Virus record (IMG/VR): IMGVR_UViG_2974801466_000001
Coordinates: 10,197 to 74,196 of that record
Strand: one strand, 5' to 3'
Origin: Haloferacalesvirus Serpecor1
Lineage: Duplodnaviria > Heunggongvirae > Uroviricota > Caudoviricetes > Thumleimavirales > Hafunaviridae
Length of the DNA stretch: 64,000 nucleotides
How positions within the stretch are numbered: the first letter of the stretch is position 1; each line of letters begins with the position of its first letter. The notes beneath the pieces are model-generated. The model searched no databases, was not told where the DNA came from, and saw only the letters and a program-made list of their open reading frames with translations. The translations under genes were made by a program, and so were the position numbers. Below, one piece after another: positions 8,807 through 61,112 of this stretch.

Positions 8807-10245
8807 ATTGCGAAGACTCTGAGATTTCCTTTGCGTTCATCGGGGAGGATAATGACCTCAGCAATCCGATTGTTGAGATTCGTCCTCTCACGATGGACTT
8901 CCAGCGGAATATGGGTCAGTTCGATTTCGTTCGCTCGAAGTTCTCTCAGGGTGTGGCCGAACACATCGAGGGGGCTGTCCTCGATGATGATGGAATCCTG
9001 AATCGCCCACGTCCTGTCGTTATCAAGCTCGGCGGGAAGCCGATTCACCGGATGCTCTACCTCCCCGACGCGGTTATGTTCGGGGTGAATAACGTCCACA
9101 TCGAGCTTCACGACGTACAGAAATACCTCGATAGGGGAGTTGTGGACTACCAGCGGCAGAACGTCCGACTCGAAGAAGCGTACCGCTACGTGTTCAACCA
9201 GCGGGACACCTCGGACGGGGAGATGTTCTCCGGCATCCGGTTCTCTGTTCCAGAATCGGCTTTCGAGGAACTAAACAGTCGGTACACACCCGGCTTGGGG
9301 CCGATTACGCTGAAGAACCAGCGGTCTTGGGACAAGATTCGGCAGGCTCGGCGCGACCAAACGGGTGCGTTTGAGCCGAAGCAGGAGGAAGACGTTATCC
9401 GCGACCTCGAAGCTGAGAACGTTCACAACATCATCGACGGGCACTACGCCCTCGACTTCAAGCAGGTGTCTCCGTGGGAGGCTATCCTCGAAATGAACGA
9501 GAAGTTCGGTGTCACGACGTGGGTGGCCCCGGACGGATACCTGTGGGTCGGTAGCCGGGAAGCGACCGGCATCGACCACGTTACGGCTCCCGACGACCCC
9601 CGAGTGTGGAAGCTAATCGACTACAACATTACTCCACCGCGCGACCCGATTATGAAGGTCGTCGTCCGGGGAAAGCAGGTTCACGACCCGAAAGATAGTT
9701 TTGCTGATAACGTCGGGGAGTTCGTGAATCAGAGCCGGAACATCTTGGACTTCCGTATGGAGGGAGTCGCAGAACGTCCCGACCTGAACTACGGTCGGGT
9801 GATTACTCCCGAAGACCTCGATGCGGCGGCTGACGGTCTAAAGGAAATCGCCAAGCGGCGGCTAATCAACGAGCAGAAGAAGCAATGGAGCGGGAACATC
9901 GAGCTTCTTCCGTCCCACTCCGGCGACTCGTGGACTGATATTCGAGACGTTCAGATTGGTGACGGAATCGTAACTATCCCGCCCGAGAACGGCGGTGGGG
10001 AGTGCCGGAACAACATTCAGTTGGAGAAGTTCACGATTACCGGCGTTCACCACACGCTGACGGAAAATGGAGAATGGACGCTCCGCCTCGATGTGGTTCC
10101 GATTGCGGATGGAAGTCTCCACCCGGACAACGTGAAGACCTACAACCGCTACTTCGACCCGACGAGCAAGGAGTACGTGGACGAGGAAACGTATGAAGCT
10201 CGCAAGGAGGCAGACAAAGGCTTCCAACTGAACGACCTAATCTGA
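8803..10245 (+). CDS. Tail/baseplate protein, 480 aa (position of P2 gpD or Mu gpN DNA-circulation-like protein)
   Basis: Synteny after the TMP. Start codon overlaps the stop of the previous gene. Confidence 0.3.
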   Translation: MNCEDSEISFAFIGEDNDLSNPIVEIRPLTMDFQRNMGQFDFVRSKFSQGVAEHIEGAVLDDDGILNRPRPVVIKLGGKPIHRMLYLPDAVMFGVNNVHIELHDVQKYLDRGVVDYQRQNVRLEEAYRYVFNQRDTSDGEMFSGIRFSVPESAFEELNSRYTPGLGPITLKNQRSWDKIRQARRDQTGAFEPKQEEDVIRDLEAENVHNIIDGHYALDFKQVSPWEAILEMNEKFGVTTWVAPDGYLWVGSREATGIDHVTAPDDPRVWKLIDYNITPPRDPIMKVVVRGKQVHDPKDSFADNVGEFVNQSRNILDFRMEGVAERPDLNYGRVITPEDLDAAADGLKEIAKRRLINEQKKQWSGNIELLPSHSGDSWTDIRDVQIGDGIVTIPPENGGGECRNNIQLEKFTITGVHHTLTENGEWTLRLDVVPIADGSLHPDNVKTYNRYFDPTSKEYVDEETYEARKEADKGFQLNDLI

Positions 10246-16483: not shown

Positions 16484-17521
16484 ATGAGCAATATTAACTA
16501 CGGTGCTGGTATCAGCGGAGATGTTACTTTCTCCTCTAACGGAACACTCAATCGGTTTTCGAGTTTCCGAAATCTGACTATCAACTCAGGAGTGACTGTT
16601 ACAGCTCCTTTTGGTGCTGTTATTCAGGTATCAGAAAAGCTAACTGTTAACGGGACTCTCAAAGTCAATCACCGCGTCGGTTCTGGTTCTAACGGCTCCG
16701 GTGCGAACGGTGGGGACGCTGGCGGGAGTGTGTTTATTCTCGCTAAGGAAGCAGACGGCGATGGTGTAATTCGAGCGAACGGACAAAACGGAGGGAGTAC
16801 GAACGGAAACGGGAACTCGTACAACAATAATAACAATAGGTCGTCCTCTGCCGCGCCCCCGGCTATTGTAGCCCGCGATACTCAGATGATTTCCAGCGGC
16901 GCTCAGGGAGGCCACGACGCAAGCGAAAATAGTGGAGGCGACAACGGAGGCTCCCGAGAGTCGATTGTGGAAGCAGACCTACTTCCCGTGTGGCTCGAAG
17001 ACTGGCTCGTTTCGGGTGGATATGTGACGCAGACCCCGATGGCGAAGCTCGTCTCGGGCGGCGGGGCCGCTGGTGGAGACGGCGGTTCTGACGATAATAA
17101 CAACAACAGTTACAACCGCCCCGGCGGTGGTGGCGGTGGTGGTGCTGGCGGCTCCTTCGGGGGTCGCGGTGGAAACGGAGGTAACGGCGGAAATGGGGGT
17201 GGCGACAGCAACTCCCACGGTAAAGACGGTGGTGGCGGTGCTGGCGCTGGTGGCCTCATCGTTCTGGTGAGCGAAACTATCAGCGGCAGTCTCACTACCG
17301 AGGCAAAGGGCGGTACGGGAGGTACTGGCGCAAACGCCAACGGTAACGAAGGCTCCGGCGGCTCCGGCGGCGGTGGTGGTGGTGGTGCGATTATCGTTGT
17401 CAGTCCCGGTGATATTCCCGCATCTTACGAAGTTGGCGGTGGGCCGACTGGAAACGTCAGAGGCGGAAACAGCGGCGAGGAAGGCATCTTCGTTCAGTTC
17501 CCACTCTCGGTGATTGGATAA
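16484..17521 (+). CDS. Gly/Asn-rich low-complexity fibre or receptor-binding protein, 345 aa
   Basis: Long runs GGGGGGGAGGSFGGRGGNGGNGGNGGG, NNNNN and SGGSGGGGGGG. Composition is atypical for the otherwise acidic proteome. Last gene of the tail module. Confidence 0.4.
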   Translation: MSNINYGAGISGDVTFSSNGTLNRFSSFRNLTINSGVTVTAPFGAVIQVSEKLTVNGTLKVNHRVGSGSNGSGANGGDAGGSVFILAKEADGDGVIRANGQNGGSTNGNGNSYNNNNNRSSSAAPPAIVARDTQMISSGAQGGHDASENSGGDNGGSRESIVEADLLPVWLEDWLVSGGYVTQTPMAKLVSGGGAAGGDGGSDDNNNNSYNRPGGGGGGGAGGSFGGRGGNGGNGGNGGGDSNSHGKDGGGGAGAGGLIVLVSETISGSLTTEAKGGTGGTGANANGNEGSGGSGGGGGGGAIIVVSPGDIPASYEVGGGPTGNVRGGNSGEEGIFVQFPLSVIG

Positions 17522-17927: not shown

Positions 17928-18419
17928 ATGTTCCCGAGATTTCTACTCGATAGTGACGACGATTGGCAGGAGGGAGTACGTGCGTGGCTGTATCCACGTC
18001 TCCATCCGTTCCTAACCCCCTTCGGCGGCTACGGAGTCGGCCATACGGGGGTGAATCAGTACGTCGGTAAATTCTCCGAAGATGAGGAAAGCATCGAGGA
18101 GGAACTGGTCGATGGTGGTTTCCGGCGGAATCCGATTGCGTGCTTCAAGTCGCTCCCCGATGGACGCAAGAGCGAGGGGTCGTGGGTTCTCATTCCAGAG
18201 GACGCTCCCGACCACGTTGCTCCGGGGATGCAACTACACGTAACGATGTTCAAGCGAGCTGACGGGCAGAAAGGCCGCGAGATATACGCCCATTACGAAG
18301 ACGATTGGCGTTCGGCTCCGGTCGCTCATCTCCGAGCAAAGAACTTCAGCGCCGCCGCTGGCGTTGATATTGCTCAGGATTACTTGGACAAGGAAACGTT
18401 CCTTATCCGGCAAGAATAG
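17928..18419 (+). CDS. Hypothetical protein, 163 aa
   Basis: ORF preceded by an oligo-T tract. Confidence 0.35.
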   Translation: MFPRFLLDSDDDWQEGVRAWLYPRLHPFLTPFGGYGVGHTGVNQYVGKFSEDEESIEEELVDGGFRRNPIACFKSLPDGRKSEGSWVLIPEDAPDHVAPGMQLHVTMFKRADGQKGREIYAHYEDDWRSAPVAHLRAKNFSAAAGVDIAQDYLDKETFLIRQE

Positions 18420-18434
18420 TAGTTAATCAATCAG

Positions 18435-19265
18435 CTATTCGTCTACTTCGTTGGGTAGCATCCGCGACCCCTTCTTGTGTTGCCACCGACTGTCGCGGTA
18501 CATCGACTGGTGGGAACTAATCTCGTTCTTAGTTCTACGAATCTCCATGTCTTCTTCTTTGGTCATGGGCCGGGAGGTCGCGTCAGTAAGCATCGAATCT
18601 CGGCGGAACGGAATCACCTGAACGATAGGAGTCCCGGCATCGACAACTCCTTCAAAGTCACCGCCAGTCCACATGAACGGCGCGTTGATGTTGTTGAAGT
18701 AGCTGTCAACGTCAACGATTCCAGAGAACGGAGTGAACGGCTGGCCGGGTCGGTTCATCGGGTTCGTGACGAGTACCGAGTAGCCGTCTGGAACCTTTAT
18801 CGACCAATGGTTGATGAACTTCAGAACCGGCCACTTGTGGTTGGGGAACATATCCCCGCCGACCTGAGACAAGCTGTGGGGTGAAACAAGCTCCCGCTGG
18901 AACTCCCACTCGTACTGTACGTACCCATCTTCCGCATTGAAGTAGATTTCACCAGACAGGGGAACAATAAATCCCATCGTCATGGCCTCCATGAACGGAG
19001 CGCACCGCTTCACGGTTGAACGGGAAACTCCATTTCGCTCGTTAGTGGAGCCAAGCTCTCCCTCGGTGTATTGGCCGAGTTGCTTGTACCAATCCGGCAG
19101 TACCTTGTTCGCAGGAATTGGCTCGGGAATCGCTCCGTACAGTTCTTCTTCGGTCACGAACTCGATGAGCTGGTCTTCTTCCGGTTCTTCTTCTGCTGGT
19201 GAGCCGTCCGGTCGAACCTTCGTAGAGAGGTCACTAACGGCCTCAGTTACACTCGAAAAATCCAT
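18435..19265 (-). CDS. Hypothetical protein, 276 aa (possible cupin or dioxygenase-like fold, unverified)
   Basis: Convergent with the tail module; conserved promoter cassette immediately upstream. Confidence 0.4.
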   Translation of the reverse strand: MDFSSVTEAVSDLSTKVRPDGSPAEEEPEEDQLIEFVTEEELYGAIPEPIPANKVLPDWYKQLGQYTEGELGSTNERNGVSRSTVKRCAPFMEAMTMGFIVPLSGEIYFNAEDGYVQYEWEFQRELVSPHSLSQVGGDMFPNHKWPVLKFINHWSIKVPDGYSVLVTNPMNRPGQPFTPFSGIVDVDSYFNNINAPFMWTGGDFEGVVDAGTPIVQVIPFRRDSMLTDATSRPMTKEEDMEIRRTKNEISSHQSMYRDSRWQHKKGSRMLPNEVDE

Positions 19266-19268
19266 TTG

Positions 19269-19322
19269 TCCTCACCCTATTAGACGTGGGGCAACGACTT
19301 AAAGATTCCTCTTTGAGTCTTT
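19269..19322 (-). promoter_or_regulatory. Conserved promoter cassette copy 1 (leftward), drives 18435..19265
   Basis: Sequence ccTCACCCTATTAGACGtggggcaacGACTTAAAGATtcctcttTGAGTCTTT. Read on the minus strand it gives AAAGACTCA, 10 nt, TTTAAG, then conserved CGTCTAATAGGGTGAGG. Confidence 0.55.
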
Positions 19323-19467
19323 AACTTGAAAACTATATGATACCAGAACTCGCAAGCACCCCACCCCTCGTGGCGTGGATGCTCGGCTTTTTCATGGCAT
19401 TGGCACTCAAACGCGGTCGGGTTCAACAGATACTCGACCAATTCCTCCCGACAGACGACTAACTCCC

Positions 19468-19522
19468 TAAGACTTAATTCGGTATCTTTAAGTCCTTAGT
19501 GGCCGTCTAATAGAGTGAGGAG
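19468..19522 (+). promoter_or_regulatory. Conserved promoter cassette copy 2 (rightward), drives nrdJ
   Basis: TAAGACTTAattcggtatcTTTAAGtccttagtggcCGTCTAATAGAGTGAGGAG. Inverted relative to copy 1, forming a divergent promoter pair. Confidence 0.55.
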
Positions 19523-19561
19523 CTTCGTGACGAACGGAGTGACCCCACTCGAATATCCATA

Positions 19562-19602
19562 CCCCGTATTACCCACTTAGGGTAGTACGGGGTGTTTTTC
19601 AC
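19562..19602 (+). terminator. 13-bp hairpin followed by T5 tract in the nrdJ leader (attenuator or terminator-like)
   Basis: ccccgtattaccc-actta-gggtagtacgggg followed by tgtttttc. Confidence 0.3.
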
Positions 19603-19706
19603 TCTAAGTAAACCGCTTAGGAGAGGGTAGGATAGAAGACAAACCCCTCGATGTAGTGAATCACTCCGAGTAGTCCACCTACTATATTACTATACTATAC
19701 AGCAAA

Positions 19707-22127
19707 ATGTCCGTAGTCACAACTGAAGCAGACGAAACCGAACAGACTCTCGAAACCCCCATCAAGACCGTCAACGATTCTCTCTCCGTAGAAGAACGCC
19801 TGACCGACAACGCTCTCCACGGCATCCTCCCGGCCCGCTATCTCCGCAAAGACTCAGAGGGCAACATCACCGAGGACGCCGACGAGCTGTTCCGACGTGT
19901 CGCTGAGAACGTCGCGGGGGCCGAGGTATCCGACGAGGATTACGAAAAGTGGGCCGACGAGTTCCAGCACCAGATGGAAACCCTCCGGTTCATGCCGAAC
20001 AGCCCGACGCTGATGAACGCGGGAACCGACATGAACCAGCTCTCCGCGTGTTTCGTAATCGAGCCGCGAGACGATATGGAAGACATTTTTGAGACGGCTC
20101 AGCAGGCCGCTCTCATCTTCCAGAGCGGGGGTGGCGTCGGCTATGCCTTCTCCCACCTCCGACCGAAGGGCGCGTTCATCAACTCCACGGGTGGCGAAGC
20201 GAGCGGCCCTGTCTCCTTTATGCGGGTCTTTGACGAAACGTGTAATCAGGTGAAACAGGGCGGGAAGCGCCGGGGAGCGCAGATGGCGATTCTCCGCGCC
20301 GACCACCCCGACGTGGGCCGATTCATCGTGGCGAAGCGGAATGAGGGCGACCTCTCGAACTTCAACATCTCTGTCGCTACGACGGACAACTTCATCGAGG
20401 CAGTTGACGCTCAGGACTCCTACACTCTCCGCGACCCCGAGACGGACTACGACGAGCCGTACACGGTGCGAGAGGCATCCGCTCACTTCTACTCCCCCGA
20501 GTATCAGGACAACCCGCGAGACGCCTTTGACGACGGCGAGGGCGCAACCGTGGACGAGAACCTGTGGCGGGACTACGCCGACGAGATTGAGTGTGAGCTG
20601 TTCGGTGAGCGCGTCTCCCTCCGCGAGAAGTGGGAGGGCCACGAGGGTCTTCGCCTCGAAGTGGGTGAGCCGATGGAGCTTCCCGCCGCGTTCATTTGGG
20701 ACGTGATGATTGACGGCGCGTGGCGGAACGGTGAGCCGGGCCTGTTCAACTTCGAGGAATCCAACCGCCAGCACTCCTTCGACGTGGAGAAGTACCCCGA
20801 GTTCCGCATGAACGCGACTAACCCCTGCGCCGAGCAGATGCTCGTGGAGTACGAAGCGTGCAACCTCGGCCACATCAACCTCAGCCTGATGCTGAAGGAG
20901 GACGCGCCGACCTACGACGAGTTCCTTAGCGATAAGCTGGATTCAATCGCTACGGGCGACCTTTCCACCCGCGAAGTCGTGGAGTGGTACTTCGAGACGG
21001 CGACGAATTTTGAAGACCTGAATCGAACCATCGAGGCTGGTGTCCGATTCCTCGATAACGTGGTCACGCAGTCCGACTTCCCGATTCCCGAGATTACCGA
21101 GCGCGTCAACGGGATGCGGAAAATCGGACTCGGAATCATGGGCTTCGCTCAGATGCTTTTCCAGATGGGGATTCCCTACGGGACGCAGGACTCCTACGAG
21201 ATGGCCCGTGCGGTCATGCGGTACATCGACCGGAAGGGAACGTGGTCGTCGCACAATCTCGCCAAGGAGCGCGGCGTGTTCGACTACTGGGACAAGAGCA
21301 AGTACGCTGACCCGACCGAGTACCCCGAGTGGTTCGCGGCCCGCACCGGGCTTGACCCGAACGACCACGCTGGCGGGTTCTTCATCCGCAACCACAACAT
21401 CACGACTATCGCCCCGACCGGCACGACCTCGATGATTGGGAACACGACGGGCGGGTGCGAGCCTGCCTACAACGTGGCGAACTTCAAGAACGTCTCCGAG
21501 GACATTCAGGGCGACGACCTGCTCGTGGAGTTTGACGACTACTTCCTTCGGACGCTCGAAGCGAACGGCATCGACGTGGACGCCGTGAAGGAGGAAGCGG
21601 AGACGCTGATGCGGAACAACGAGTTTGAGGGAGTCAACGACCTGTCTATCCCCACCGAAATCGCGGAAATCTTTGTGACCACGCAGGACTTGTCCTCTGA
21701 ACAGCACGGGCTGATGCAGAGAGCGTTCCAAGAGTTCTGCGACTCGGGCATCAGCAAGACGGTGAACCTCCCGAACGAGGCGACACACGACGACGTGAGC
21801 GAAGCCTACCAGCTTGCCCTCGATGAAGACCGACGCGGCGCGGTTATCAAGGGCCTCACCGTGTACCGGGACGGCTCCCGTGACGTTCAGGTTCTCACGA
21901 CGCGCGTGGACAACAATCTGGACGACGAGGGCGACCGCGACGACGACCTGCTTGAGCTGTACCTCAAGGGAGAGGTGAGCGAGAAGGCGGCGGTTCAGCT
22001 CGGTATCGTTGGAGAGGACGACGTGGGTTCGGATACGCTCACTTGCCCGGAGTGTGGTGACGGTGAGCTTGAGAAGACGGACGACTGTGCGGTGTGTCCC
22101 GAGTGCTGGTACTCTCCGTGTAAGTAG
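19707..22127 (+). CDS. nrdJ: Ribonucleotide reductase, class II (adenosylcobalamin-dependent), 806 aa with C-terminal zinc ribbon
   Basis: Motifs NSPTLMNAGT, TNPCAEQ and CNLGHINL. C-terminal CPECGDGELEKTDDCAVCPECWYSPC. Confidence 0.9.
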   Translation: MSVVTTEADETEQTLETPIKTVNDSLSVEERLTDNALHGILPARYLRKDSEGNITEDADELFRRVAENVAGAEVSDEDYEKWADEFQHQMETLRFMPNSPTLMNAGTDMNQLSACFVIEPRDDMEDIFETAQQAALIFQSGGGVGYAFSHLRPKGAFINSTGGEASGPVSFMRVFDETCNQVKQGGKRRGAQMAILRADHPDVGRFIVAKRNEGDLSNFNISVATTDNFIEAVDAQDSYTLRDPETDYDEPYTVREASAHFYSPEYQDNPRDAFDDGEGATVDENLWRDYADEIECELFGERVSLREKWEGHEGLRLEVGEPMELPAAFIWDVMIDGAWRNGEPGLFNFEESNRQHSFDVEKYPEFRMNATNPCAEQMLVEYEACNLGHINLSLMLKEDAPTYDEFLSDKLDSIATGDLSTREVVEWYFETATNFEDLNRTIEAGVRFLDNVVTQSDFPIPEITERVNGMRKIGLGIMGFAQMLFQMGIPYGTQDSYEMARAVMRYIDRKGTWSSHNLAKERGVFDYWDKSKYADPTEYPEWFAARTGLDPNDHAGGFFIRNHNITTIAPTGTTSMIGNTTGGCEPAYNVANFKNVSEDIQGDDLLVEFDDYFLRTLEANGIDVDAVKEEAETLMRNNEFEGVNDLSIPTEIAEIFVTTQDLSSEQHGLMQRAFQEFCDSGISKTVNLPNEATHDDVSEAYQLALDEDRRGAVIKGLTVYRDGSRDVQVLTTRVDNNLDDEGDRDDDLLELYLKGEVSEKAAVQLGIVGEDDVGSDTLTCPECGDGELEKTDDCAVCPECWYSPCK

Positions 22128-22425: not shown

Positions 22426-22638
22426 ACACCGTGGGTATATAAAACGGGGGGTGTCAGTCAGGGTTTTCTTTCAGCCAGCCCGATTGTGGAAACTTGGTGT
22501 TACAAGTGCGGCATACGGGGCTATACCCCCTATTTATTTATAAGTAGGATTGTTAGTAGGAGGTACAGAGGCACGCAGAAGGGGTTGTTCCCGGCAAGGT
22601 TAGCCGCTTTCAGGGCCGTAGGCCCTCTCGGTAAAGCG

Positions 22639-22685
22639 CGTCCTTGGTAAGGACGAGAGCGGGGGTTCAAATCCCCCCTCAGGCT
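22639..22685 (+). other. 3' portion of a tRNA-Thr(GGT)-like gene (anticodon stem-loop to acceptor 3' strand); candidate attP core
   Basis: cgtcc-ttGGTaa-ggacg anticodon arm, ggggg-ttcaaat-ccccc T arm, ctcaggc acceptor 3' strand. No matching 5' acceptor or D arm upstream. Lies directly upstream of the integrase. Confidence 0.45.
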
Positions 22686-41598: not shown

Positions 41599-42552
41599 TT
41601 ACATCCGGTTCTCGATTTCCGCAACCACCGCATCGAGGTCGTAGTCGGCGTCACCGACTTCGCCGTTCACGAGCTGTTCGACGTTCTCCGGGTTCGTCTC
41701 GCCCGTGTTCGCCATGAAGTCGATAATCTGGTCGGCGGCCTGCGGGACACCCTCGGGAAGCCCCTCGTCGTCGGAGCCGTCGCCGCCGAGCGAACCACCG
41801 GAGTCACCGGAGGACTCGTCGGCGTCGTCGCTGTCACCGCCGCCGTTGTTGGCGATGGTGATACCGGCCAGCGTCTCGGCGTCGAGAACCTTCGCGTCCG
41901 TGTATTCCACGTAGTCGTCTTCGCTCTCCGCGTCGTCCGGCAGGAAGCCGTCCTTGTAGTAGGAGAGAATCACGCGGCGGCCTTCGAGGTCGTCTCGAAG
42001 TTCGAGAGCATCCTCGTTCAGCCAGTTGTAGTTGTCGTCCTTGTCGTCAACCACGTCGTGACCGGCGGGCGTGATGACCTTGGCGAAGGTGCGGTTCTTC
42101 GTCCCGTTGCTGAGCCACAGCGTACAGTTGCCGAGGCTCACCGGGTCGTCGCCCTCCTTCACCGCCTCGGAGAGTTTGTACGTGAAGTCGTTGCTACCGA
42201 ACTGCTCGTTGTGCCGGGAAGGAACGTCGTCGGCGTCCACATCCTCCGCAAGTGCGCCGTTGTCGTCGGTGGCGAACCAAGTGTCCCACCCGAAGACCTT
42301 GACCGTATCATCGTCCGGGTCGCCGGGCGACCGCTCCATCACGATTCCGTCGATTACCTCCACGTCGTCGGCGTCCACGATGAGGGACTGCCCGTAGGAC
42401 GACCCGGTGTATTCACCGAGACGACCAATCGTGAACGAGATGAAGGCGTAGTTGTTCATCTTGAGCGACAGGCGCTCCTCGAAGTCGCCGCCCGCGCCGC
42501 TGTTGCTGTTGTTGCTACCGCCGCTGTTGTAGTCGGTGTCGAAAAGGCTCAT
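41599..42552 (-). CDS. Hypothetical acidic protein with Gly/Ser/Asp-rich termini (SSB-like acidic tail?), 317 aa
   Basis: First gene of the leftward replication operon. C-terminal GGGDSDDADESSGDSGGSLGGDGSDDEG. Confidence 0.4.
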   Translation of the reverse strand: MSLFDTDYNSGGSNNSNSGAGGDFEERLSLKMNNYAFISFTIGRLGEYTGSSYGQSLIVDADDVEVIDGIVMERSPGDPDDDTVKVFGWDTWFATDDNGALAEDVDADDVPSRHNEQFGSNDFTYKLSEAVKEGDDPVSLGNCTLWLSNGTKNRTFAKVITPAGHDVVDDKDDNYNWLNEDALELRDDLEGRRVILSYYKDGFLPDDAESEDDYVEYTDAKVLDAETLAGITIANNGGGDSDDADESSGDSGGSLGGDGSDDEGLPEGVPQAADQIIDFMANTGETNPENVEQLVNGEVGDADYDLDAVVAEIENRM

Positions 42553-42783
42553 TTGTTGTAGTTGGGTTTCTCTGGTTCTGGTTATCGGTCGGTACGAAGC
42601 CAGCTACGGCATAGGTATTTGCGCCGTAGAAAGTCTGGACGGGCGGAATCGAACCGCCCTTGGGAGGTTTACAGCCTCCGCGTTCGCCTTGAACACGTCC
42701 AGAAATGGCCTATGATTGGGGGTGTCCACACCGCGTGAACGGGAGTGGCTACAAAGGTACGGCCAGCACCTCGCGTAGCCAAG

Positions 42784-42856
42784 CGCCGAGGACAGGACTC
42801 GAACCTGTGACTACGTGGTTAACAGCCACGCGCTCTACCAACTGAGCTACCTCGGC
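42784..42856 (-). tRNA. tRNA-Asn (anticodon GTT)
   Basis: The reverse complement folds canonically: acceptor gccgagg/cctcggc, D arm gctc-agttggta-gagc, anticodon arm cgtgg-ctGTTaa-ccacg, T arm acagg-ttcgagt-cctgt, discriminator g. Confidence 0.9.
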
Positions 42857-42883
42857 AAGAGAAAGGAAGGATTGGGTGCTTGT

Positions 42884-42934
42884 CCCCACTCTATTAGATG
42901 TGGGACTAAGACTTAAAGATACCTATATGAGTCT
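42884..42934 (-). promoter_or_regulatory. Promoter cassette copy 5 (leftward), drives tRNA-Asn
   Basis: cCCCACTCTATTAGATGtgggactaaGACTTAAAGATACCtatatGAGTCTTA. Confidence 0.55.
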
Positions 42935-43019
42935 TAGAAGTCGTCGGGAGGGATACCCCGCTCGATGAAGTTAGTAGCAAGTGGAGAACCACGACCGGGA
43001 GAGATAGACGTAGGAGACA

Positions 43020-43229
43020 TTACTTATCGAGACGGTTAACCCACGTAGAGAGATTCTTCACGGAGAGGCCGTCAGACCGAATATCGTCAGCGAGAGAGTT
43101 GAGAGAATCGAGTAGAGCAGAATCGTTGAGAGAGACGGGATATTCGATAGAGATGATGTCCACCTCGTCTCCGTCACCGAACGGTTCAAGAGTCACTTCG
43201 AGGTCGCCGGAGGTCTGAGTGTAGCTCAC
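43020..43229 (-). CDS. Hypothetical small acidic protein, 69 aa
   Basis: ORF. Confidence 0.35.
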   Translation of the reverse strand: MSYTQTSGDLEVTLEPFGDGDEVDIISIEYPVSLNDSALLDSLNSLADDIRSDGLSVKNLSTWVNRLDK

Positions 43230-43676
43230 TTACTCCTCCGAGAGCGCGTCGAAGTTCGGAACGACCGTGCCGTTCACGCGGTTGCCGGGAACGCTCATCC
43301 CGGTCAGCTCGAACACGTCGGCCACCTTCTCGATACCGAACGCATCGAGTAGGTCGAAGAACTCGGCGGAAGCGTCCTCGATACCATCGGGGAGGTCGAA
43401 CTCCAAGTCAGCCGGGTCGGGGCCGTTCTCCGTGTACGTGGGAATGACCACGTACAGGTCTTCGGTCAGCTCACCCCGGTCGATGAGTCTCGGCTCACCG
43501 AACTGAATCTGAACCTCGAAGCCGGAGTCCGTGCGTTCCGTGATTGCGTTGAAGACCGCCTCCGCCCCGCCGAGGTCGAGGTAGTCGTATTCGTTGTCGT
43601 TACTGCCGAACAGTAGGTTTCGGATGAATCCAAACATAGTTCTCTCTGGTTTCCAGCAGATAACCGTCGCTGGCAC
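43230..43676 (-). CDS. Hypothetical acidic protein, 148 aa
   Basis: ORF coupled to the downstream gene. Confidence 0.4.
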   Translation of the reverse strand: MPATVICWKPERTMFGFIRNLLFGSNDNEYDYLDLGGAEAVFNAITERTDSGFEVQIQFGEPRLIDRGELTEDLYVVIPTYTENGPDPADLEFDLPDGIEDASAEFFDLLDAFGIEKVADVFELTGMSVPGNRVNGTVVPNFDALSEE

Positions 43677-43718
43677 GGCTTAGGTAGCGTAGTACCGAAT
43701 CCCCAATGACTAAGGGGA

Positions 43719-43799
43719 AGCGACCGGCGGGAATCGAACCTCGCCTTGACCCTACCCACGCCCGTCGAGGGGCATGGTCATAGGGCCACCATTGGTCGC
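43719..43799 (-). ncRNA. tRNA-like element (acceptor 6 bp, D-like arm, irregular anticodon arm with 6-nt loop, T-like arm with 8-nt loop GTTCGATT and an A-C mismatch)
   Basis: Reverse complement gcgacc..tggt-ggccctatg-acca..ggcgag-gttcgatt-cccgcc-ggtcgc. Does not satisfy canonical tRNA rules. Confidence 0.3.
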
Positions 43800-43818
43800 A
43801 AAACGCAGAACGAGTGTG

Positions 43819-43953
43819 CTACTCGTTCTTCATTTCGTACATCGTCTCCTCGTGTTCCAACTCAGCCTTTCGTCGGAAGTATCCGAACGCGGCCACCGTG
43901 ATAACCGCCACGAGGAACAGCCACAGAATAATCAAGAAGACGACTTTGAACAT
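43819..43953 (-). CDS. 44-aa single-pass membrane peptide (MFKVVFLIILWLFLVAVITVAAFGYFRRKAELEHEETMYEMKNE), partner of the SPFH protein
   Basis: ATG is 1 nt after the SPFH gene stop. Below the ORF-table cutoff. Confidence 0.35.
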   Translation of the reverse strand: MFKVVFLIILWLFLVAVITVAAFGYFRRKAELEHEETMYEMKNE

Positions 43954-43954
43954 C

Positions 43955-44830
43955 CTACTCGCCTTCTTCGTCAGTCTCCGTCACGAGCGAGGGGGTTTCG
44001 TCACTCGGGAGGTAGATGGTCTTACCATCCGAGTTCTTGATTGCCTCGATGTAGCGAATCTGGATGAGTTCCGGGTTGTTACGAACGGACTGAGCGACAA
44101 TCTCGTTCGACTTCGCCTCACCACGAGCCTTCTCGATTTGGGCACGGGCTTCCTGCTTCGCCACTTCAACCTCGGCCTCAGCCTTCAGCTCTCTCTGTTG
44201 GGCGACCTCCTTCTCCGTAATTGAACGCTCGTAAGACTCGGGGAAGTTCACCTTCGTAATCTGAACGGAGTCCAGAACGAGGCCGGTCTGAGCGAACTTC
44301 TCCTCAAGCTGGCTCCGAGCATCCATCGTGATTTCCGTCTGACCGGCGGAGGTGTAGACCTCGCTCGTCTTCATGCTACCCGTCGTAACGAGCATCTGCT
44401 TGGCGAGCGTCGTCCGAATCATCCGCTTCTCGGCGTTCTCAAGAGTGCGGTAGTCGGTGTAGAAGTCAGTCACCGCCTCCGGGTCGTTCGGAAGCTGGTA
44501 GCGAACGGTCACGTCGAACGTCGCCTCCACACCATCGGCGGTCTTCACCACGATGGGGTCAGCGTATTCTTTCGCTCCCTCTCCGGGGTTCGAGGTCATG
44601 GTGTACGCCTGCTGGCGAGTAGAGAGCGTCACAACGTCGTTCTGGACAGGAGTAATCCAGTTCGCACCGGGCTGAAGAACCTCACCGCTTGCGTCACCCC
44701 ACTCGGTGACGACGCCGACGTTTCCTTCATCAACGGGATTCCATGCCATCGCACCGAGCGAACCGGCGGTGAGAAGCATGAAAGCCATAACAACTCCGAC
44801 AGCTTTCAGTTTGAATGTAGTTAGTTCCAT
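43955..44830 (-). CDS. SPFH / band-7 (stomatin-prohibitin-flotillin-HflK/C) family membrane protein, 291 aa
   Basis: N-terminal TM anchor, then the SPFH core (GNVGVVTEWG...VTLSTRQQ...ADGVEATFDVTVRYQL), then a C-terminal coiled coil (QQRELKAEAEVEVAKQEARAQIEKARGEA). Confidence 0.8.
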   Translation of the reverse strand: MELTTFKLKAVGVVMAFMLLTAGSLGAMAWNPVDEGNVGVVTEWGDASGEVLQPGANWITPVQNDVVTLSTRQQAYTMTSNPGEGAKEYADPIVVKTADGVEATFDVTVRYQLPNDPEAVTDFYTDYRTLENAEKRMIRTTLAKQMLVTTGSMKTSEVYTSAGQTEITMDARSQLEEKFAQTGLVLDSVQITKVNFPESYERSITEKEVAQQRELKAEAEVEVAKQEARAQIEKARGEAKSNEIVAQSVRNNPELIQIRYIEAIKNSDGKTIYLPSDETPSLVTETDEEGE

Positions 44831-44874
44831 TTAGTAGATTTCTCTGGTCTGTTTAATAGAGCGGTACACCGCAT

Positions 44875-44943
44875 CGAGTTGGGAGGAATCGAACCTACCC
44901 ACTACGCTAACCAGCAACTCGGAAAAGCCACCGTAGAGGTGGC
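44875..44943 (-). ncRNA. tRNA-like minihelix (7-bp acceptor-like stem cgagttg/caactcg enclosing a T-arm-like hairpin gtagg-ttcgatt-cctcc) plus adjacent 6-bp hairpin gccacc-gtaga-ggtggc
   Basis: Lacks D and anticodon arms. Located in the leader between promoter cassette 6 and the SPFH gene. Confidence 0.3.
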
Positions 44944-45009
44944 TGGACACCAACGAGTAACAATGGCAGGACTCAGCCAAGCAAACGAGTCAAGGGGGCC
45001 ACCGCGACC

Positions 45010-45063
45010 TCCTCACTCTATTAGACGCGATACTATGACTTAAAGATACCGCTTTGAGTCTTT
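45010..45063 (-). promoter_or_regulatory. Promoter cassette copy 6 (leftward), drives the tRNA-like/SPFH operon
   Basis: cCTCACTCTATTAGACGcgatactatGACTTAAAGATACCgcttTGAGTCTTT. Confidence 0.55.
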
Positions 45064-45119
45064 ACTCCGTGCTACTCAGATAGCAAAGACTTAAGCGAAG
45101 CAACTCCGTCTTTGTAGCT

Positions 45120-45671
45120 ATGGCGAAGACGAAACATAAGAATCAGGAAAAGGTCGTCAAGTGCCCCGTTGAGGGTTGCGACCACGAGGGGTTATCCCGA
45201 GGGATGCACCTTCACGTTCGTCAGTCCAGCGGCAACGGACACGGGCCGAACGGGGATGTACCCGAACACTTAGACTTTAGTAATCTGGAAGTTGTGGGTA
45301 CACGGGAAGTTGAAATGGATTACCCGTCTGAACGCAAAGGCGAGGACGTTGCCCGTCTCTGTCCCTTCTGCCGACGCCCATTCAGCGGGTATCAGGGAGT
45401 TATGATTCACCTCGGTCAGATTCAGGGGAAGGAGAACCACCCTGAGGATGCTACCGATATGGTGGAGAAGGGTGACTGTCCGGTTGCTCACGTCGATGAG
45501 AACCGCAACGTTGTAGAAGTGATTGAGGAAGGCGACCCCGACCTCATGCCGTCCACGGAAGACCGTCGTGAAGGCTCTGTGCCGCGAGCCGACGTGATTG
45601 CCTACATCGAGTGGGCTGAATCCAACGACCACCTCACGGCGGCCAACAAAGCCCGAGAGATGCTACTCTAA
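45120..45671 (+). CDS. Zinc-finger protein, 183 aa
   Basis: KCPVEGCDHEG and CPFCRRPFSG Cys/His pairs. Confidence 0.45.
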   Translation: MAKTKHKNQEKVVKCPVEGCDHEGLSRGMHLHVRQSSGNGHGPNGDVPEHLDFSNLEVVGTREVEMDYPSERKGEDVARLCPFCRRPFSGYQGVMIHLGQIQGKENHPEDATDMVEKGDCPVAHVDENRNVVEVIEEGDPDLMPSTEDRREGSVPRADVIAYIEWAESNDHLTAANKAREMLL

Positions 45672-46189
45672 ATCTCGATTTCGTCACGCCACTTTTCCGA
45701 GAAGAACTCGGGTTCGTACTTCCACTTATTTATCGACGGGTCGTTACGGTACAGTTCGTTTGTGAGCTTCACCATCTCGTAGAACCCCTGTTTCGTCAGG
45801 TAGTCCTTCTCCCGATACGCCGGGAGGATTTCTCCCATGAAGATGGACGCCAGCTCACTCTGCTGAATCAGGTACGGAGCCAGCGGCCCGTAGAATCGCT
45901 CAATTGATTCAGCGTCCGAGATTTTGAACAGCATCGTCGTTCCGCTATCCTTGATTTCCCACCGGACTCCCTGCTCGGAACAGTATTCCTCGAATAGCCC
46001 GAACACGGCGGTCTGTGGGTCGCTACGACTGATTTGAACGTATGGTTCTATCTTGTATCCGGTCTTGAAGTCATCATCCTCGCTGATTTCCACTCGGAAC
46101 CGACCGAGTGAATCGACTACTCCGGCGATGTACGCTACGTCGTCCTCTTTCATACCACCCAGTTTCGGGGTGGCCTGTGATAATGTCAT
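45668..46189 (-). CDS. LAGLIDADG-type homing endonuclease-like protein (single motif, I-CreI-sized), 173 aa
   Basis: N-terminal DVAYIAGVVDSLGRF matches the LAGLIDADG core pattern. Free-standing between two inverted promoter cassettes. Confidence 0.4.
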   Translation of the reverse strand: MTLSQATPKLGGMKEDDVAYIAGVVDSLGRFRVEISEDDDFKTGYKIEPYVQISRSDPQTAVFGLFEEYCSEQGVRWEIKDSGTTMLFKISDAESIERFYGPLAPYLIQQSELASIFMGEILPAYREKDYLTKQGFYEMVKLTNELYRNDPSINKWKYEPEFFSEKWRDEIEI

Positions 46190-53353: not shown

Positions 53354-53618
53354 TTCTTAGAAGGTTCTGGTCAGCTCGTCAATAGCCGGGGCGACCAACT
53401 CCCGACGACGCCCCACCGTAGGGCGTTTCGCCGTTATTCTCGCCACTCCCGCCGCTCTATGTCGATTATCTCAGACACGTCACGGCGGGGCTTCGTCTTT
53501 CCACGACGACGCCAACACGCCTTCCTCCGAAGGGAGTAGAAGTAGTCGTAGTCAGATTGCTCTATCTTCTCAATATCTTCTTCCATAATACCGTAGTGAC
53601 ACCGCAGGATGTTCGCCG

Positions 53619-59260: not shown

Positions 59261-59617
59261 CTAAAGGGCGTTCAGGGCGTCTTCCAGCTCTCGGTCGAAC
59301 AGCGCCACCAGTTGCTCGATGGACTGTTCCTCTCGCTCGATTGCGTTGAAGGGCCTCCCGTCAACATCGTAGATGATGTAATCAGCCTCGGTCGGCTCAA
59401 TCGCAATCGAACCCCACTCGATTTGCTCGTCGTAGAACTTCGCTACGGAAGCTCGGCGGAGTCGGTACAGGTAGTCTCCGACCTTCAGTTCGAGGTCGGC
59501 TTCGCTTAGGTCGATACGTCGGTCGTCGGTTGGTGATTCTGCTACTGCCATCGGTGTCACTCGGTAGTATGGGCTACCGAAGGCTCTGCTACGGAGTCGA
59601 ACCGTAGTTACCGCCAC
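59261..59617 (-). CDS. Hypothetical acidic protein, 118 aa (start may be MAVAESPTDD at about 59551)
   Basis: ORF. Upstream leader carries the tRNA-like minihelix. Confidence 0.35.
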   Translation of the reverse strand: MAVTTVRLRSRAFGSPYYRVTPMAVAESPTDDRRIDLSEADLELKVGDYLYRLRRASVAKFYDEQIEWGSIAIEPTEADYIIYDVDGRPFNAIEREEQSIEQLVALFDRELEDALNAL

Positions 59618-59655
59618 TCAGAGCAAAGGGTTAAAGTTGCTTACTTGAGTCTTTA
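59563..59655 (-). promoter_or_regulatory. Paralogous leader A: AAAGACTCA, 11 nt, TTTAAC promoter, then tRNA-like minihelix (gctctg-[ctacgg-TTCGACT-ccgtag]-cagagc), then second hairpin, then GTGACACCgATG
   Basis: Minus-strand reading. Minihelix at 59583..59624, second hairpin at 59563..59578. Confidence 0.4.
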
Positions 59656-61028: not shown

Positions 61029-61112
61029 CCAGTAGCTTACGCTACTGAGGCCCTTCCGGGGAGTCGAACCCCGGAGCCGCCGCTAAGGGTTAAAGTTGCT
61101 TAGATGAGTCTT
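61029..61112 (-). promoter_or_regulatory. Paralogous leader B: AAAGACTCA, 11 nt, TTTAAC promoter, then T-arm-like hairpin ccgggg-TTCGACT-ccccgg, then hairpin cagtagc-gtaa-gctactg, then GTGACACCaATG
   Basis: Same architecture and about 60% identity with leader A. Confidence 0.4.

Follow-up and report, generated by a model that had tools for sequence, protein, structure and literature searches.

A covarying 81-nucleotide tRNA-like RNA beside a prohibitin-family gene pair in the tRNA island of Halorubrum virus Serpecor1

What is the role of two tRNA-like sequences that lie between the genes of a viral island in which genuine tRNAs and a membrane protein of the SPFH family are also encoded? The question is raised by a 2.7-kb region in a 64,000-nt stretch of DNA (the window; positions 10,197 to 74,196 of IMG/VR record IMGVR_UViG_2974801466_000001, where subtracting 10196 from a record coordinate gives the window coordinate). 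The region matches Halorubrum virus Serpecor1 (MN901521.1; Hafunaviridae, Haloferacalesvirus) at 100% identity and is shared at 84-90% identity by ~40 related haloviruses (83.7-90.4% for the haloferacalesviruses), labelled here by locus where a label is needed (L003, HRTV-19; L005, HRTV-8; L009, HJTV-2; L010, HSTV-4; L049, HRTV-27). The original prediction, made from the letters of the sequence, read the island as two promoter cassettes bracketing an SPFH protein, a 44-aa membrane peptide, two small acidic proteins and two tRNA-like elements, followed by tRNA-Asn, and each of these parts is present on the minus strand in the order proposed (Table 1). The tRNA-like elements exceed chance, as the T-loop motif GGTTCGANTCC occurs seven times in the window compared to an expected 0.4, and four of the seven copies fall in this region, all on one strand. 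Most of the island is already published (genome, tRNAs, prohibitin gene, promoters and a "partial tRNA-Arg"). The GenBank record contains tRNA-Tyr, tRNA-Asn (as "Asx"), four hypothetical proteins and a "prohibitin family protein", and the Serpecor1 genome paper reports tRNA-Asn and a "partial tRNA-Arg(TCT)" with a 28 nt deletion (PMC7230728). What is new is that the second tRNA-like element (element B; the first is termed element A) is no debris but a covarying 81-nt RNA, which stands unannotated in more than 30 sequenced haloviruses. The family formed by element B and the hairpin that it contains (hairpin H) is a modest but real addition to the known island.

Element B forms a three-way junction composed of a 6-bp acceptor stem, a linker (AAUGGY, with an invariant GG), hairpin H, two unpaired bases and a T-arm. 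Hairpin H consists of a 7-bp stem, a UGA/G internal loop, an 8-bp stem and the loop CUYGAY, and the T-arm consists of 4 bp, one bulged base, 2 bp and the loop UUCGAUU. Ten distinct sequences, all of 81 nt, were aligned, originating from haloferacalesviruses, HRTV-27 and the metagenome contigs L034 and L051. In this alignment 99.6% of the cells are paired and compensatory changes are found in 8 of the 27 pairs, including four in the acceptor stem (variants GCGACC/GGTCGC, GCGCTC/GAGCGC and GTCCTC/GAGGAC) and one in the T stem (GGCG/CGCC and GGTG/CACC). None of 500 shuffles matched this, and shifted alignments were 37-47% paired. Folding of the single sequence by minimum free energy recovers the structure of the alignment (-47.1 kcal/mol, z=-3.98). 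The antisense strand reaches only -38.9 kcal/mol and several pairs of the sense strand are G-U, hence the structure belongs to the gene-sense RNA. By the covariation found, element B is a conserved structured RNA. Its covariance model detects a single copy in the window (109.6 bits), and its sequence is 92.6-98.8% identical among haloferacalesviruses, which exceeds the conservation of the region as a whole. The element is present in 36 phage records and is annotated as an RNA in none of them: the haloferacalesvirus records have no feature at its position, and in HRTV-25 and HRTV-27 a coding sequence for a "hypothetical protein" was placed over it.

Neither element is a tRNA in the strict sense, since A has no D and anticodon arms and B carries a 6-nt loop on a 15-bp stem. 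In an Rfam search over 42400-45300 neither of them reached the tRNA model even at E<=10, the homologues of B in eight relatives gave no tRNA match at E<=0.05, and searches of the region and of related loci returned no family for A, B or H. The position of B is informative as to its origin. L028 has a genuine tRNA-Ser(TGA) at exactly the position of element B, with the same 3' hairpin, the same motif CUACUACGCUAC and homologous 3' flanks, which makes B the positional counterpart of a class II tRNA; judged by this synteny, B may derive from a class II tRNA. The best explanation of element B is a selectively maintained 81-nt tRNA mimic, in which the conserved 15-bp hairpin replaces the D and anticodon arms. 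Hairpins flank the element on both sides. The upstream one overlaps the stop codon of the 44-aa gene, ends directly at the 5' end of B and is kept in all aligned haloferacalesvirus relatives, and the stem of the downstream one varies among relatives while it stays complementary (CCCCT/AGGGG, CGCCT/AGGCG and GCGCCC/GGGCGC, read by eye). A variant of B in L023 (5041-5215) has an insertion of ~85 nt in hairpin H with a stem of its own (TACCTG/CAGGTA), and retains the acceptor stem, the linker, the outer stem of H and the T-arm.

Hairpin H also occurs outside element B. In HRTV-8, HRTV-19 and HRTV-10 the place of B (slot B) is occupied by an intact tRNA-Gly(TCC), after which a free-standing H and then a degenerate acceptor/T-arm unit follow. 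Free H is found in further halovirus tRNA clusters as well, between tRNA-Leu and tRNA-Arg in L037 and L047, between tRNA-Leu genes in L040, and between tRNA-Arg and an SPFH gene in L038. Across 13 distinct sequences from both contexts 98.9% of the cells of H are paired and six pairs show compensatory changes. A scan for H in cellular genomes (one for each of 185,579 prokaryotic species) gave three chance bacterial matches and none in a haloarchaeon. Seven further metagenome loci (L030, L031, L035, L036, L039, L041 and L045) were set aside as chance matches to the H pattern, being GC-rich and having neither tRNAs nor a halovirus context. Known motifs were compared by eye: a bulge-helix-bulge intron motif was rejected for H because a second bulge 4 bp away is missing, a K-turn or C/D box because tandem G-A pairs are missing, and a hammerhead core was rejected as well. 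A likeness of the H loop to haloarchaeal type I-B CRISPR repeats was also considered and looked weak. The open reading frames (ORFs) of 180-197 aa annotated after tRNA-Gly in HRTV-8, HRTV-19 and HRTV-10 run across the free H. Element B is a concrete non-coding RNA candidate for archaeal virology.

Element A, located upstream of the SPFH gene in slot A, behaves differently. Its acceptor stem of 7 bp (CGAGTTG/CAACTCG) is joined by a linker of 16 nt to a T-arm that pairs imperfectly and has the loop TTCGATT. Alignment of ten relatives showed that slot A holds an intact tRNA-Arg(TCT) in six viruses (HF2, via a Hardycor2-like sequence, Hardycor2, HRTV-10, HJTV-1, HCTV-7 and Hardygib1), and the 48-nt minihelix in Serpecor1, HRTV-8, HRTV-19, HJTV-2 and HSTV-4; the contigs L022, L023 and L032 likewise have the minihelix, and element A is present in 16 phage records. 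Element A shares only 24 of 48 positions with the tRNA-Arg, compared to 152/198 and 48/55 (77-87%) in the flanks, and its acceptor stem differs from that of the tRNA-Arg at most positions and is nonetheless perfectly paired over 7 bp. Element A is therefore not a plain 28-nt deletion of tRNA-Arg, which corrects the published view. Two pattern scans of IMG/VR for a parent tRNA returned only the same minihelix and one unrelated contig. Across six variants of element A compensatory changes are absent; pairing in the T stem is 66.7% (one position never pairs and another pairs in half of the variants), both stems are broken in L032, the overall pairing (84.7%) equals the shuffle mean, and the fold is not unusual (z=-1.45), so that A does not show the covariation of a structured RNA. 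From these comparisons element A looks like the decaying remnant of a tRNA. The elements are unlike each other: in B compensatory changes maintain the acceptor stem and the T-arm, and in A there is nothing but decay.

The two promoter cassettes postulated in the original prediction are real. They are 83% identical over 53 nt, correspond in position to the annotated intergenic repeats (IR) 2 and 3 of HF2 and both contain the exact class I beta motif TCTTTAAGTC, which forms the TATA element of the IR2 homologue at 45037-45046; the gamma motif CGTCTNNTAGAG is exact in the IR2 homologue and has one mismatch (CATCTAATAGAG) in the IR3 homologue. In HF2 all IRs drove a reporter gene, start sites were mapped by primer extension, and IR3 drives an 18-kb transcript (PMC8707807). 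Long HF2 transcripts were seen by reverse transcription PCR compared to bands of 0.5-9 kb on Northern blots, on which account the authors suggested processing (PMC8707807). By homology with HF2, transcription in Serpecor1 would start at ~G45018 (IR2 type) and ~G42891 (IR3 type), giving predicted leaders of 97 nt before element A and 35 nt before tRNA-Asn. The longer leader terminates in a hairpin that ends one base before element A and is kept in ten relatives (with G-U variants) directly before either tRNA-Arg or element A. This ~97-nt leader (44922-45018, minus strand) contains long stretches that are invariant across ten viruses, e.g. GAGTGAGGAGGTCGCGGTGGCC and ACTCGTTTGCTTGGC, is more conserved than the occupant of slot A, and ends in hairpin plus U4; it could be a leader RNA or an attenuator. 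A scan for bacterial-type terminators, which requires 5 T in 8, left the sites of hairpin plus U4 unflagged.

We propose, as the probable reading of this locus, that it comprises two early/middle transcription units which start at the IR promoters and in which tRNA-type units between the genes are cut by RNase P and tRNase Z. The IR2 unit would consist of the 97-nt leader (with its hairpin and U4), slot A, the SPFH gene, the gene of its 44-aa partner, a hairpin plus U4, slot B and the genes of the two acidic proteins, and the IR3 unit would open with tRNA-Asn and tRNA-Tyr. Slots A and B would be tRNA slots whose occupant varies among related viruses, being tRNA-Arg(TCT) or minihelix A in the former, and element B, tRNA-Gly(TCC) plus free H, or tRNA-Ser(TGA) in the latter. 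Host RNase P and tRNase Z would recognise the tRNA-type units and cleave the polycistronic RNA at their ends, leaving the upstream mRNAs with a protective 3' hairpin and the downstream mRNAs with short leaders, and releasing tRNA-Asn, tRNA-Tyr and a B RNA of ~81 nt. On a tRNA, RNase P and tRNase Z contact the acceptor stem together with the T-arm on which it stacks, the T-loop being of the canonical form. Promoter activity (in HF2), the tRNAs themselves, the fold of the SPFH protein and the structure of the B RNA are established; processing punctuation by the tRNA-like units is plausible, because (i) real tRNAs fill the same slots in relatives and must be excised from the same transcripts; (ii) selection in B acts on the acceptor stem and the T-arm; (iii) a hairpin plus U4, which would form the 3' end of the upstream RNA, precedes each slot; and (iv) the t-elements of Haloferax are processed likewise in vivo (PMC4326828).

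Several points weigh against such processing. Cleavage at A or B in Serpecor1 is a step that we infer, and as substrates of RNase P and tRNase Z B is without a D-arm and A without D and anticodon arms. In L025 the SPFH pair is flanked on neither side by a tRNA or a tRNA-like unit, which implies that punctuation is not needed to express the genes of the pair. The conservation of H (loop, U-G pair and UGA/G loop) exceeds the needs of a processing signal and suggests that B has a function of its own, although the search pattern partly fixed the inner helix and so inflated its invariance (the outer helix and one inner pair were unfixed). B and free H may be, in a reading that we consider possible though not probable, mainly a functional small RNA (e.g. 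protein-binding or decoy), the tRNA-like part or the flanking tRNAs serving only for its excision and the cutting of mRNAs being a side effect. H is conserved both inside a tRNA-like frame and free between real tRNAs; its loop CUYGAY, U-G pair and UGA/G internal loop are invariant while the outer stem covaries freely, and the tRNAs flanking a free H would release it when they are processed. In L034 and L051, moreover, B adjoins tRNA-Asn and does not lie between protein genes, and inspection by eye of four free-H variants showed complementarity between a 5' hairpin loop and the sequence 3' of H, with both sides changing in step (AGTCGC/GCGACT, CCAGCG/CGCTGG and CGCTTAC/GTAGGCG). However, no partner or target was identified, there is no Rfam family match and no consistent protein-gene neighbour was seen, and a small-RNA function is compatible with punctuation rather than exclusive of it.

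That both elements are functionless remnants of tRNA genes, left by recombination and deletion in a fast-changing tRNA cluster, is quite unlikely. Element A fits this description by its want of compensatory change, poorly paired T stem, one broken acceptor stem and ordinary fold energy, and it was published as a partial tRNA-Arg (PMC7230728); moreover, the slot contents vary and homing-endonuclease genes lie nearby. Element B contradicts it with eight compensatory pairs and no indels in ten variants from at least two virus groups, and with a conservation above that of the surrounding genes, and even A combines its low identity to the tRNA-Arg of its neighbours with a perfect acceptor stem. It is still far less credible that B is a working but aberrant tRNA-Ser (anticodon YGA) in translation. 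The loop CUYGAY does hold CGA or UGA, both of which are serine anticodons, and the 81 nt of B are near the 83 nt of the tRNA-Ser(TGA) found at the same position in L028; B has, however, a loop of 6 instead of 7 nt, a 15-bp "anticodon stem", neither a D-arm nor a self-paired variable arm, a variable discriminator base (U, A or G) and no match to the Rfam tRNA model. A bolder extension of the proposed processing, which we regard as doubtful, would have B and free H constitute a new class of small RNA encoded by haloarchaeal tailed viruses, which the tRNA-processing enzymes of the host excise owing to its tRNA mimicry and whose invariant hairpin binds a host or viral factor. If this were true, the RNA might, beyond any punctuation, be for instance a decoy against host defences that target tRNAs, or a regulator of translation.

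The SPFH assignment of the original prediction stands up to profile search. The 291-aa protein matches Pfam Band_7 (PF01145, E=4.7e-34, above the cut-off) and phrog_200 (E=1.2e-67), and its best sequence match in the PDB is prohibitin-2 (1.6e-14), with prohibitin-1 also among the closest. Its AlphaFold model (predicted local distance difference test score, pLDDT, 77.5) comprises a helix (3-29), an alpha/beta domain and a further helix (198-251), and the top Foldseek matches of the model are cages of prohibitin, stomatin, HflK/C, erlin and QmcA, a match to 8rrh having E=5e-15. With a hydrophobic segment at residues 11-29, the protein has the SPFH domain, the N-terminal membrane anchor and the long C-terminal coiled-coil helix of the family. 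In HRTV-8 (L005 2221-3288), HRTV-19 (L003 3221-4288) and HJTV-2 (L009 1936-2880) the annotated SPFH protein is N-terminally extended (355 or 314 aa) and its reading frame passes through minihelix A; it is the Serpecor1 ATG that is conserved as a start. The 44-aa partner begins one base past the SPFH stop codon and has its Kyte-Doolittle maximum (3.11) at residues 4-22. Homologues of 45-52 aa, in which LWL, YF and HE residues are invariant, lie directly 3' of the SPFH gene in L023, L025 and L028, where the SPFH proteins are 83%, 62% and 42% identical to that of Serpecor1. A small membrane partner coupled to the SPFH protein is thus real, being conserved even where the latter is only 42-62% identical; an identification of the partner as NfeD failed, as it has no significant Pfam or NCBIfam match and is, with 44 aa, too short for an OB domain. 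Together with its partner, the SPFH protein most likely builds a ring or cage of the prohibitin type that is anchored in the membrane.

The pair had been called unexpected in a virus. Against this view stand the match to phrog_200, by which the pair is a common one in phages, and the more distant contigs that keep the place of the pair beside a CxxC gene. L023, L025 and L028 share the order ERCC4 nuclease, two ORFs (without Pfam matches), CxxC-type protein (encoded on the opposite strand), SPFH protein, partner and a protein of 129-137 aa. Five contigs (L022, L032, L033, L044 and L048) have element A, a 20 nt gap and element B without the SPFH pair, in agreement with two proviruses reported to be without the prohibitin gene (PMC7230728). 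An insertion of the pair as a cassette between A and B was considered and dropped, as distant contigs (42-62% identity) keep it in place. Because these more distant contigs hold the pair at the same position, it is more likely that the pair is old in the lineage and was lost in the L022 clade. A defence role had also been suggested, and it is unlikely that the pair is a superinfection-exclusion or defence module. The family is membrane-anchored and cage-forming, and the absence of the pair from the L022-type contigs shows it to be dispensable for the core functions of the virus; PADLOC, however, gave no defence-system match among the four proteins of the island (a spurious capH match at E=0.0067 for one and none for the other three), no toxin, nuclease or sensor gene is attached, and the pair is stably inherited at one position across diverged hafunavirus-like contigs. 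Such inheritance fits a routine role in the infection cycle, e.g. in membrane organisation or in the modulation of a membrane protease.

Table 1 Features of the island, in window coordinates and in the order in which the minus strand is read.
Feature	Coordinates	Strand	Basis
Class I intergenic-repeat promoter, HF2 IR2 homologue ("promoter 6")	45010..45062	-	53-nt repeat, motif and position
Leader hairpin GCCACC-TCTAC-GGTGGC, then UUUU	44922..44943	-	read from sequence
Element A, 48-nt tRNA-derived minihelix (putative remnant)	44874..44921	-	alignments with relatives
Prohibitin-family SPFH protein, 291 aa	43955..44830	-	Pfam Band_7, PHROG, fold model
Single-pass membrane partner, 44 aa	43819..43953	-	ORF, hydrophobicity, phrog_27041 (E=1.7e-30)
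Hairpin GAACGAG-TAGCACA-CTCGTTC, then UGCGUUUU	43800..43828	-	read from sequence
Element B, 81-nt structured tRNA-like RNA, three-way junction	43719..43799	-	alignment, fold, covariance model
Hairpin directly 3' of element B, CCCC-UUAGUCAUU-GGGG	43701..43718	-	read by eye
Acidic protein, 135 aa	43230..43637	-	phrog_16114 (E=2.4e-72, residues 1-135); net charge -24
Acidic protein, 69 aa	43020..43229	-	phrog_21851 (E=2.9e-44); net charge -10
Class I intergenic-repeat promoter, HF2 IR3 homologue ("promoter 5")	42883..42935	-	repeat, motif and position
tRNA-Asn(GTT), canonical	42783..42856	-	ARAGORN; Rfam 75.8 bits
tRNA-Tyr(GTA)	42633..42702	-	ARAGORN; Rfam 40.6 bits; GenBank-annotated

The original prediction rightly recognised tRNA-Asn and overlooked the tRNA-Tyr(GTA) that lies within the same span. 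Both form a cloverleaf that scores above the gathering threshold of RF00005 (29 bits) and has a 7-nt anticodon loop. The tRNA-Asn was found in all relatives examined. The tRNA-Tyr pairs C1 with G72, has a short D-loop and is under selection, since its anticodon stem (GGAGG/CCTCC) and that of Hardycor2 (CTCGG/CCGAG) have diverged through compensatory changes. The two tRNAs are separated by 80 nt in Serpecor1 (42703-42782, minus strand), HRTV-8, HJTV-1 and Hardygib1 and by 19 nt in HF2 and Hardycor2, and HJTV-2 is without tRNA-Tyr. In 62 long ORFs of the window the usage per 1000 codons is 44.8 for Asn, 34.9 for Tyr and 2.5 for the rare AGA, and Asn makes up 10.4% of a Gly/Asn-rich ORF (16484-17521). 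Haloarchaeal proteomes contain ~2-3% Asn, in view of which an extra supply of tRNA-Asn and tRNA-Tyr is plausible, and the rarity of AGA makes the loss of tRNA-Arg(TCT) tolerable. The suggestion that tRNA-Asn compensates for codon usage is accordingly reasonable as regards supply (Asn accounts for 4.5% of the codons) and does not hold as regards codon bias, because one anticodon serves both Asn codons. In related clusters ARAGORN detected tRNAs with anticodon loops of 6 or 8 nt (L028 4023-4098, L050 5439-5511, L051 1202-1274 and 2329-2403), and those of them that were run against the Rfam tRNA model reached 45-51 bits. Introns are probably present in the tRNAs of 97 and 157 nt that were likewise found in L028.

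For the 44-aa, 135-aa and 69-aa proteins PADLOC, NCBIfam and Pfam gave no matches and PHROG gave only families of unknown function. The ORF of the larger acidic protein exists as predicted, with a different length: the 148 aa originally given were counted from an upstream GTG, whereas the ATG at 43637 is the most likely start, since GenBank uses it, the PHROG match spans the full 135 aa and conservation among relatives begins there. At the junction of the two acidic genes (43229-43230) Serpecor1 lacks a 43-aa ORF that is present in HF2, Hardycor2, HRTV-8, HRTV-10, HJTV-1, HCTV-7 and others. A PD-(D/E)XK nuclease gene is inserted directly after tRNA-Asn in HSTV-4 (L010 667-1128) and its relatives, and a gene of a LAGLIDADG-type endonuclease adjoins the CxxC gene in all relatives (45668-46189, minus strand, in Serpecor1). 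It may be through mobile nucleases that the contents of the tRNA slots became mosaic.

Further RNA-type signals are found elsewhere in the window. A type II hammerhead ribozyme matches at 53366-53433 on the minus strand (39.1 bits, gathering threshold 37), and a conserved hammerhead ribozyme of unknown function was reported in viruses of the HF1 group in the Serpecor1 paper (PMC7230728). A weak tRNA match (22615-22685, plus strand, 31.9 bits) fits in position the integrase-adjacent partial tRNA-Thr that is the attP of the literature. Two minihelix-like units on the minus strand, GCTCTG...CTACGGTTCGACTCCGTAG CAGAGC (59580-59625) and CCCTT...CCGGGGTTCGACTCCCCGG AAGGG (61045-61090), each lie just downstream of an AT-rich AACTTTAACCC motif that resembles class II intergenic repeats, and one of them is probably the published aberrant "tRNA-Pro" upstream of the terminase gene. 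The predicted start sites may fall inside these units, which makes a role of the units at the RNA level uncertain.

The closest comparison for the island as a whole is HF2 (AF222060.2, nt 18366-20897), in which the gene order, promoters, SPFH pair, tRNA-Asn and tRNA-Tyr are orthologous to those of Serpecor1. HF2 differs by the intact tRNA-Arg(TCT) in slot A, where Serpecor1 has minihelix A, and by the 43-aa ORF between the two acidic proteins; its element B is 98.8% identical to that of Serpecor1 and is unannotated in both records. As for the SPFH pair, the prohibitin, HflK/C and QmcA-YbbJ cages likewise combine an N-terminal membrane helix, an SPFH domain and a long coiled-coil helix, and are likewise encoded with a second membrane subunit. 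The Serpecor1 partner is a single-helix peptide, unlike the second SPFH paralogue or the NfeD/OB-fold protein of these systems, and, also unlike in them, no protease is encoded near the SPFH gene.

A tRNA-like structure (t-element) upstream of 5S rRNA in Haloferax volcanii, described by Holzle et al. (2008, 2012) as cited in PMC4326828, is cut by RNase P and tRNase Z in vivo (PMC4326828). Elements A and B resemble t-elements in being non-tRNA units with tRNA-like features that lie within longer haloarchaeal transcripts. The shape recurs in B as a 6-bp acceptor stem and a 6-bp T stem with one bulge and the loop UUCGAUU, and in A as a 7-bp acceptor stem and a 5-bp T stem with one or two mismatches. 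Cleavage of the Haloferax t-elements defines the ends of the neighbouring RNAs, whereas for A and B we only infer it. Unlike the t-element, with which it was compared by description, B adds a conserved 15-bp hairpin with an invariant loop, and it is a natural case of tRNA genes being turned into other RNAs within viral clusters. In the tRNA clusters of large phages (species 1 and 2 RNAs of phage T4) and in the tRNA punctuation of mitochondrial transcripts, too, tRNA-processing enzymes release small structured RNAs or mRNAs from transcripts shared with tRNAs; these systems belong to another host domain than the haloviruses and have other RNA structures.

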